64,000 bases of DNA from Kondoa subrosea (taxonomy: Eukaryota), in contig BCIN01000006.1 in assembly GCA_039545335.1 (NCBI GenBank), positions 372,001 through 436,000 of the forward strand. Direction: 5' to 3'. Shown in pieces: positions 62,416-64,000 of this stretch. The notes beneath the pieces were generated by a model, which worked only from the letters and a program-made list of their open reading frames with translations, ran no database searches and was not told the origin of the DNA. A program made the position numbers and the translations under genes. Position 1 is the stretch's first letter. Each line of letters begins with the position of its first letter.

Positions 62416-64000
62416 CTAATAACCCGCTGGACCCCTGCTGCCCTGTCTCCTCATAGCAGGTGCTCTTCGGCTATGCATCCTCTTACTGAATATTTTAACT
62501 TTGATAGATCGACGTTTCTTGTGTGAGCACTTCTTTTTGCTTGCAGTTGAGGCAGAAGAGGTTGAACCATTGCTGCTGAGTTTCCTGGAGGAAGTAGACA
62601 CTGTCAGAGATGTTCCAGCAGGTGAGTAATCCGAGTAGGTATCTGGTGCTCCTTTTTGAGATTCAGACATGCCCAACGAGAACTGCACAAGACAAGTCAA
62701 CTAGAACTCTTCCATCCACGATATGAGGCTTACCAATTTGGGTGCATCGCCACTTAGACATTGCTCAAGAGCTGAAGGGATACCAACTGCGTAACTACCT
62801 TGACAAGCGTTGGCATCTTTGCAAACACCTTCGAAAGTAGGTTTGTCAACTATTCTTGCACTCCATCAGTAATTATCAATGCTAGCCAGCAGATTGATCT
62901 CACCAGAGACGTAGGAGCAAGCATTAGCGCTCTTCTCGGAAAGATCTCCGCCCTGTAAGCAACTCGGCAAGATGAAGTTATTATAAACTTCCTAAGCGGT
63001 CTTACTTACCTTGAATAGAGGGCAAGTAGGTTTCGCGCCTGTCGGACCACCGCTAATGACCAAATCTACGCATGCTTTGAAGGGACTGTTGGCTTCTCCC
63101 GAATTACCTGCCCGTCGCCAAATAAGAAAAGAAGTAGATCGCTCAAGATACAATTTTCACGAACCGGAGCCGAAATATATCCATTGAACACTGTAGAGTA
63201 CGATGAATAAATTAATCTAGTTTCCGTGAAATAGCAAAGGGTGACTAACGTGTATTTGCCATCTTCTAACCAGCCAGGGATTTTGAAAGCGCCAGAGCAA
63301 GCGTTGGACCAACCTTTGGAACCATTGGAATCTGGATGGGAGTATCACATGAACATTTACCATTGCAAAAAGCGAACAGAAATCACCTCCTCCGTCCCAA
63401 TCTCCGCGAAAGATTTAGACCAAGCGCTCTCCGTTGGAAGAATACCGAATACTTACTGTTTGGTTGAGATCCACCGTAAGTCGCATCGCATCCATTCTAT
63501 GGAAAGGATCAGAATCGTAGCATTGGTGGTCCAACCTAATTCACCTGGTTGCAATGATACGAAAAGACCGCAGCGTCGAAAGCGCTTTGATCGCCAGATT
63601 CACTCTGAGGCACAATAGAATATCTAATGAATCCACCGACTGTCAATCTCAATGTCAGTGTTCTATGTCGAAAAGAGGCATGAGGTATGAGAATAGACTG
63701 ACCGTGATTGTTTCTCCACCAGGAAGTTTCAACCTCATCACCACGTTTGTAAGTAGTTTGCTTCTTCATGACATCAGAAGAACAGCAAGTAGGGTTTCCA
63801 GAACTGTTTTCCTCCCTCTTAATATACGGTGTGGATTTCGAGAAACCCAAGACGTACCCGAAGTGCTGTTTCCAATGATGGACTCGAGACGTAGTATTGA
63901 CATAGGGCAAGAACGCACACACAAGAGCTCGTTATGACCTTGGCCATCCTCTGTGGTGATGGGAAAACCAAACTTTTCAGTCAAACGAGAAGCTGTAAGA
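62416..64000 (-). CDS. Cys-rich LPMO-like (chitin-binding type-4-like) protein; 5' end lies outside the window
   Basis: Spliced exons: TYKRGDEVETSWWRNNHVGGFIRYSIVP...YHC...C..AFKIPGWLEDGKYTVQWIYFG...PFKACVDLVISGG, a Cys-rich module, a Ser-rich linker and a basic tail. Confidence 0.65.

Follow-up and report, generated by a model that had tools for sequence, protein, structure and literature searches.

An unnamed family of LPMO-fold proteins with a predicted histidine-brace copper site, represented by a gene of Kondoa subrosea

New LPMO families have tended to bring with them a new substrate or a new biological role, and it is the residues around the copper that decide if a protein with a histidine brace cuts polymers, makes peroxide or does no more than carry copper. 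In AA9, the second-sphere motif has the spacing H-x8-Q-x-Y. The sections of PMC12186267 used here give the axial and second-sphere pairs as Tyr/Glu in AA11, Tyr/Gln in AA9 and Phe/Glu in those AA10s that are shown, state that the Gln or Glu two residues before the axial aromatic tunes catalysis in AA9 and AA11, and describe AA11 as acting on chitin; the second-sphere His and Gln of AA9 are also named in a passage of PMC10088020. According to the same sections of PMC12186267, and to parts of PMC10952591 on X325/Bim1, a histidine brace is by itself insufficient for an LPMO. Proteins filed in AA11 appear in excerpts on an "AA11 expansion" in Kickxellomycotina (PMC9866270) and on Rozella (PMC6690862), and the LPMO14 and LPMO16 groups of Voshol et al. 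(PMC5320794, PMC6950343) are portrayed as mainly fungal and as seeded with Aspergillus genes.

A set of proteins published as AA9 also belongs in this comparison. The relevant portions of Liang et al. 2020 (PMC7720654) report 16 and 17 "AA9" genes in the mycoparasitic Pythium oligandrum and P. periplocum, respectively, expanded by tandem duplication, with seven of them highly expressed on Phytophthora prey, the wall of which contains cellulose; PyolAA9-13 is highly expressed also without prey. The AA9 label was assigned there by dbCAN at a 1e-3 cut-off.

We analysed a 64,000-nucleotide window of the Kondoa subrosea genome (G000:C6:372001-436000; the genome comprises 18.9 Mb in 27 contigs), extended past its end. 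The original prediction had hand-spliced a candidate LPMO-like gene at the edge of this window. Built by coordinates on the minus strand of the extended contig sequence, the gene has 14 exons (1050 nt) that encode 349 amino acids with no internal stop, and all the hand-spliced motifs are found in this model. Its 13 introns are all GT-AG and 48-63 nt long, with YAG acceptors in eleven, AAG in intron 1 and GAG in intron 7; such short introns, together with a micro-exon, are a fungal architecture. All exons lie on the minus strand, and positions without a contig prefix are those of the window. Exons 1 and 2 (G000:C6:436188-436130 and 436073-436054), which lie 54-188 nt past position 64000, carry the start codon, a 19-aa signal peptide, His1 and mature residues 2-7. 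The gene model enters the window with the 3' end of intron 2 (63993..64000), and its N-terminus is the same in P0003 and P0026. Exon 3 (63919..63992) encodes the conserved Arg10 and a clade-specific EDG, exon 4 (63858..63865) is an 8-nt micro-exon required for the match to homologs, and exon 7 (63457..63496) follows from the gene model. Intron 7 (63456-63402) ends in the non-YAG acceptor GAG, demanded by the frame and by the homolog alignment, and the 15-nt exon 8 (63387..63401) that comes after it agrees with the homologs.

A search of 5.8 billion proteins recovered intron-free homologs on JGI/Logan contigs of 1.0-1.8 kb, presumably assembled transcripts, with 54-63% identity along the whole protein. 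Because these intron-free sequences align full length, the splice junctions are independently confirmed. The best of them, P0026, is 62% identical over 372 columns, covering residues 1-344 (E 6e-162). A pseudogene or chance frame was ruled out by the open 349-codon model and the full-length homologs. Pfam searches with single exons gave nothing informative, and a search of sequencing runs found no holder of RNA among the runs listed.

A signal peptide followed by His had been predicted past position 64000, and the contig extension bears this out: a 19-residue hydrophobic leader ends in A-Q-A, and His follows directly, its codon split by intron 1. The hydropathy of the leader peaks at 2.55 (11-residue window, residues 4-14), compared with at most 1.38 after residue 25. 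Since the leader is the sole strongly hydrophobic stretch, and hydropathy over the whole protein detects no hydrophobic C-terminal segment, neither a membrane anchor nor a GPI anchor is indicated. Signal peptidase would presumably cut behind A-Q-A, leaving His1 free.

The conservation of the putative copper ligands was examined in an alignment of 118 rows. Besides mature P0026 it comprises 6 close homologs and 111 of the hits listed, fragments and very long proteins being excluded. The His1 column holds His in 93 of 101 non-gap rows. The second His, also anticipated from its RNNH context, is mature residue 68 (aa 87, codon 63706-63704), the last of the W-W-R-N-N-H that ends exon 5 (63703..63803); it is His in 113 of 118 family rows and lies between model strands 58-64 and 72-79. 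The predicted axial residue, assigned from sequence by alignment with the axial Tyr motif of AA11, is Phe164 (aa 183, codon 63081-63079) in the S-P-F-x-x-C-x-D motif of exon 11 (63010..63107). This column is aromatic in 114 of 118 rows (Tyr 85, Phe 25, Trp 4). The axial Phe had been foreseen correctly and was described as typical of AA10 and some AA15; in this family Phe is a trait of the clade, the wider family having mostly Tyr, and the closest known family is AA11. A Gln or Glu two residues before the axial aromatic occurs in only 3 of 118 rows, the gene having Ser there, and the Asp that is common in the family just before the axial residue is replaced by Pro in this clade. Other conserved polar residues are Asn66, Asn67, Gln/Glu102, Asp121 and Gln150 (P0026 numbering). 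Further conserved elements are the G-G-F-I-R strand and C-x-Q of exon 6 (63545..63639; C-x-E/Q in the family, with Gln or Glu in 98 of 118 rows), the I-P ... D-G-x-Y of exon 9 (63250..63331), and the Q-W strand of exon 10 (63165..63190), whose Gln is mature residue 148. We consider it highly probable that a histidine-brace copper site is present, and infer that the gene product, a member of what is hereafter called the RNNH family, would bind copper in brace geometry and be catalytic.

The fold was modelled on mature P0026, a 62%-identical homolog of the gene product. With the family alignment, AlphaFold2 gave pLDDT 90.3 and pTM 0.91 over 269 residues; with six close sequences alone, pLDDT was 45.8 and the order of the core strands was unchanged. 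When the model was compared with 48,161 solved chains by VIA-align, ranks 1-23 were all LPMOs or LPMO-like proteins aligned from model residue 1, as were all 16 chains with Z>=8. Some of the AA family labels given to these chains are ours and do not come from the structure titles. The top match is AA11 7p3u (Z 10.3, rmsd 3.6, 161 aligned residues, 16% identity), followed by AA11 4mai (9.8), 5acf (9.5), AA15 5msz (9.5) and AA13 4opb (9.2, at 17% identity to the P0026 model), and then by AA10s (7.2-8.8), AA16 (8.1), X325 (7.6) and AA14 (7.3); these scores are near-ties at the superfamily level, where differences below 1 Z count as ties. Residue 1 of the model superposes on residue 1 of the AA11, AA15 and AA13 structures. 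Foldseek also ranks an AA11 first (9exj, E 7e-7), and the VIA-align list contains no chain titled AA17. The product is thus predicted to be a secreted protein with the immunoglobulin-like beta-sandwich fold of LPMOs, in agreement with the fold originally proposed. In the ESM Atlas every match to P0001 was below 0.9, and the Coemansia member of the family matched best to a Zoopagomycota cluster without a name (0.93), which may be its own; a viral fold library gave two unnamed matches at E<=0.001.

The region that begins in exon 11 and continues through exon 12 (62904..62952), with G-G-D and a conserved Cys, and exon 13 (62734..62849), the remainder of the Cys-containing stretch, had been read as a second Cys-rich module. 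In the structural comparison, the alignments of AA11, AA9 and AA14 chains reach model residues 236-268, and those of AA10, AA13, AA15, AA16 and X325 chains end at 177-180; Cys203 is present in 115 of 118 rows, and G-G-D is conserved. Because the AA11, AA9 and AA14 alignments span this region and its landmarks are conserved family-wide, the supposed module is most likely, as judged from the model, a C-terminal extension that belongs to a single catalytic domain about 250 residues long. A separate Cys-rich module is judged improbable on these observations and on the pTM of 0.91 over 269 residues.

Exon 14 (62416..62682) encodes the end of the folded domain, a linker, the motif K-K-K-C-S, a 40-aa basic tail and the stop codon. 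The Ser-rich linker of the original prediction was found as a Ser/Thr-rich segment (22 of 50 residues), and the tail described as rich in K, R and H proved rich in the first two: its 40 residues, starting with K-K-K-C-S, contain 16 K+R, only 2 His, one Cys and no acidic residue. K-K-K-C-S is present in the paralog described below and in all nine close homologs checked, and a strongly basic C-terminus in 15 of 88 family hits of at least 300 residues. Disordered tails are common on LPMOs, as stated in a passage of PMC8615602, so the basic tail is a known kind of feature and not a novel one. A close parallel is the tail of PcoAA14A, reported in the part of bioRxiv 10.1101/2025.11.04.686606 at hand to bind copper, to dimerise via Cys and to bind basidiomycete spores; there, as here, a basic patch containing His and one Cys comes after a low-complexity linker, although PcoAA14A has 4 His and the present tail 2. 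Cys-driven dimerisation is also described for CoAA9A in a section of PMC10990093. By analogy, the tail probably binds an anionic cell surface, and its Cys may dimerise the protein.

A profile of the six close homologs, searched against 1.84 billion representatives, collected 356 clusters at E<=0.001 and 139 at 1e-10. Within the best 150 of the 356, a crude signal-plus-His pattern was seen in 91 and an RNNH-like motif in 104; many others are fragmentary. When 20 distant or partial hits were looked up, organism names were obtained for four (Pythium brassicae, Coemansia sp., Neoconidiobolus thromboides and Porphyra purpurea). Sequence comparison delineates a discrete family that occurs in oomycetes, Zoopagomycota and a red alga and has four genes in the K. 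subrosea genome. One of these is an intact paralog 16 kb from the gene, on the opposite strand (G000:C6, about 452.5-454.0 kb; L006:2493-3962 +). It has 8 exons with all-GT-AG introns, three at positions common to both genes, and encodes 359 aa, 62% identical to the gene product over 285 columns, with a signal peptide, His1 and a Phe-type axial position; its first 206 residues are about 90% identical to the homologs P0006/P0032. The paralog has no counterpart of the 8-nt micro-exon at 63865-63858, the intron before it being missing there. Two distant family genes lie on contig C1 of the same assembly, near 2,391.5 kb (L017:1010-2150 +) and near 63.7 kb (L018:945-2100 +); inspection by eye shows in each a signal peptide, His1, A/S-N-H instead of RNNH and an axial Tyr, and in both an intron immediately follows the His1 codon on its 3' side.

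In a quick IQ-TREE phylogeny of 130 out of 160 rows (the other 30, incompletely covered, were removed), the gene groups with its paralog and nine close homologs, all of which have S-P-F, in a clade that is supported by SH-aLRT 100 and whose stem is long (0.78); in this tree, which has no outgroup, deeper relations are poorly resolved. A Pfam scan of 119 members detected above cut-off Chitin_bind_1 in 3, GH18 in 1, CBM_2 in 1 and ricin lectin in 2, so that only a minority of members have a chitin-binding module, and those that do sit on branches of the tree other than that of this gene. Fusions to a GH18 chitinase, PKD plus EGF, a proprotein-convertase P domain or a ricin-type lectin were noted in P0149, P0170, P0110, P0135 and P0164.

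We regard it as somewhat more probable than not that the gene product oxidatively cleaves some polysaccharide; the more specific proposal, that it is a secreted, soluble monocopper histidine-brace enzyme of the RNNH family that oxidatively cleaves fungal-type wall polysaccharide, appears to us about evenly balanced. Copper would be held by His1 and His68, with Phe164 axial; reduced copper together with H2O2 (or O2 and a reductant) would oxidise a C-H at a glycosidic carbon, and this would lead to a break in the wall polysaccharide chain. The likeliest substrate would be a fungal-type wall (chitin, chitosan or beta-glucan), belonging to the fungus itself or to other fungi nearby. This choice is based on the affinity to AA11, on the few members fused to chitin-binding or GH18 domains, on the expression reported in Pythium, and on the cationic tail, which would anchor the enzyme at an anionic cell surface and perhaps dimerise it. 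Chitin is unlikely as the only substrate, since the wall of the Pythium prey contains cellulose and the family occurs in a red alga. Our literature searches found no assay of any RNNH-family member.

Because the usual second-sphere Gln or Glu is missing, the main rival is a brace copper protein that does not cut polysaccharide, being either an H2O2-producing oxidase that feeds AA9s or a copper-handling protein like X325/Bim1. We think this rather unlikely, although the canonical residue in just 3 of 118 rows speaks for it and precedents exist: AA16 enzymes are described in the pertinent passage of PMC10088020 as making H2O2 and boosting AA9s, and X325/Bim1 in parts of PMC10952591 as having the brace without convincing redox activity; the eight AA9 loci of this genome could be the partners. 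Against it, the axial aromatic is retained in 114 of 118 rows, and the fusions to chitin-binding, CBM2 and GH18 domains indicate polysaccharide targets. By Z score, AA11, AA15 and AA13 (9.2-10.3) are nearer in fold than AA16 (8.1) or X325 (7.6), with differences below 1 Z again counting as ties. The second-sphere role could, moreover, be supplied by Asn66, Asn67, Gln/Glu102, Asp121 or Gln150 (P0026 numbering); in SmAA10A, as presented in the sections of PMC12186267 cited above, a Glu from another sequence position does so.

The reading as a polysaccharide-cleaving enzyme leaves the question of where the family belongs among known LPMOs. The original view that the protein is unlike fungal AA9, AA11 and AA14 is upheld insofar as Pfam yields no clean assignment. 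Among the six close homologs there was no AA9, LPMO_10, AA14 or BIM1 match at E<=1. In the broader scans, AA9 (PF03443) was narrowly over cut-off in 4 of 119 distant members (29.8-32 bits, the cut-off being 27.8), LPMO_10 (PF03067) matched 1 of 118 weakly (E 2e-4), BIM1-like gave weak matches in 3 of 118 (best 25.5 bits, cut-off 27), and LPMO_AA14 (PF22810) was absent from the 14 Pfam families to which the 118 members showed matches at E<=0.01. Weak NCBIfam matches to SCE4755 monooxygenase-like proteins in 9 of 118 (best E 1e-4) are taken as superfamily-level only. At E<=0.01, 21 of 118 members match DUF7492 (PF24320) weakly, and this family is also a neighbouring cluster in the ESM Atlas, but no scanned member reaches its curated cut-off of 27 bits (best 26.7); it is a related but separate uncharacterised family. 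By fold and ligands the protein is like an LPMO, yet by the Pfam models and motifs used here it falls under none of AA9, AA10, AA11, AA14, AA15 and X325.

Among known families AA11 comes closest, rather than AA10 or AA15. The family profile run against the PDB found AA11, AA9 and AA16 chains in 30 of 31 hits, the best solved LPMO being AoAA11 (42.5 bits, E 6e-10; AA16 7ze9 scores 32.9 bits), and AA11 structures (AfAA11A 7P3U; AoAA11 4MAH/4MAI; AfAA11B 9EXJ/9HDG) are thus the best matches by profile and by fold (Z 10.3 and 9.8). The two families share His1, a second His before a G-G strand, an aromatic three residues ahead of a conserved Cys, and a structural alignment that runs through the C-terminal extension (model residues 1-254 and 1-258). 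They differ in that identity to AA11 structures is just 15-16%, that the Tyr+Glu fingerprint of AA11 is replaced in the gene by Phe+Ser, that R-N-N-H stands where AA11 has its own sequence before the second His, and that no X278-like module was seen in the gene, which has the basic tail instead. AA9 is likewise similar in fold (5nns, Z 9.0; 7ntl, Z 8.8), in the C-terminal extension and in weak profile matches, but the pattern H-x(7-10)-Q/E-x-Y/F-x-x-C, which allows for H-x8-Q-x-Y, occurs in 0 of 118 rows and in neither gene on C6, and the six close homologs lack a PF03443 match. AA15 (TdAA15A 5MSZ), AA13 (4OPB) and AA10 resemble the model in fold, and AA10 also in its axial Phe; in these families the extension is missing, and the gene has no Glu before the Phe.

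It is conceivable, though in our view improbable, that the RNNH family is a very divergent branch that CAZy curators would file in AA11, or in AA9 as Liang et al. did. AA11 is first by profile, Foldseek and VIA-align and has the C-terminal extension in common, and a few members pass the Pfam AA9 cut-off; on the other side stand the low identity to AA11, the Phe+Ser pair in place of Tyr+Glu, and the 41 family hits outside the profile, which score 78-296 bits against 42.5 for AoAA11, a comparison that is not independent because these hits were selected by a related profile. For AA9 in particular, the Pythium label comes from a loose dbCAN threshold, and Pfam searches of the K. subrosea genome, which serve as an internal control, detect at least 8 loci of AA9 and 3 of AA14 but not one of the four family genes. 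LPMO_10 had no match in the genome. A GH7 search of the genome was also without a match, but its control was silent too.

That the family is poorly characterised holds in the sense that no paper defining it was found in our literature searches (most subscription papers and the CAZy site lay outside their coverage), but members of it have been published. In Table S2 of PMC7720654 the string RNNH appears 32 times, and the 15 places viewed account for all but one of the 16 AA9 rows of P. oligandrum; the exception is the prey-induced PyolAA9-3, which is without exact RNNH and, like the high expression of PyolAA9-13 without prey, complicates the picture. PyolAA9-2 reads identical, by eye, to the family hit P0061 (both 324 aa), and PyolAA9-1, -2, -4 and -13, reported in the same paper as up-regulated on Phytophthora prey, all have RNNH. 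Judged by these motifs, the Pythium "AA9" expansion consists largely of RNNH-family proteins; they belong to the same family as the gene but form a separate clade (11 rows, SH-aLRT 100), with axial Tyr or Phe and other tails. The description of this expansion as cellulases consequently rests on a loose HMM call, and the family expanded and induced in mycoparasitic biocontrol Pythium is probably not a cellulose-active AA9.

The least probable of the rival readings, a true LPMO that serves feeding on a plant or algal polysaccharide such as cellulose or hemicellulose, can appeal to CBM_2 in 1 of 119 members, to the 8 AA9 and 3 AA14 loci of the genome and to the cellulose in oomycete prey walls, but chitin-binding and GH18 fusions exceed the cellulose-binding ones, and the family occurs in Zoopagomycota such as Coemansia and Neoconidiobolus, which to our knowledge are not cellulose degraders.

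The RNNH proteins, for which cleavage of fungal-type walls is our preferred role, form a widespread LPMO-fold family that has no name as yet; its copper environment is unusual, and part of it has been concealed by the AA9 label. Its members retain the brace and the axial aromatic but lack the usual second-sphere Gln or Glu, and Tyr and Phe versions coexist within one genome, which makes the family a ready test of what renders a brace catalytic; the proteins are small and secreted, so that their function is directly testable. A broader interpretation, offered tentatively and still doubtful as a whole, is that RNNH represents an ancient unnamed LPMO family of fungi, oomycetes and red algae with a novel second copper sphere and a microbial-wall role in mycoparasitism and interfungal competition. 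If this were true, the expanded "AA9 cellulases" of biocontrol Pythium would be reassigned, the present gene would stand for a Phe-type fungal clade whose cationic, Cys-bearing tail targets the enzyme to fungal surfaces, and the second copper sphere would do without Gln or Glu before the axial aromatic, with R-N-N before the second His instead.

The neighbourhood of the gene shows no CAZyme cluster or carbohydrate context in the 56 frames scanned (53 of the 130 frames listed, together with 3 from the window), in which the only Pfam hits were Duo1, a helicase, DUF1264, an isomerase-like TIM barrel and a methyltransferase. The TIM barrel, which is xylose-isomerase-like (PF01261), belongs to the downstream gene (62200-60872, minus strand), which starts some 200 nt beyond the stop codon of the gene described here.
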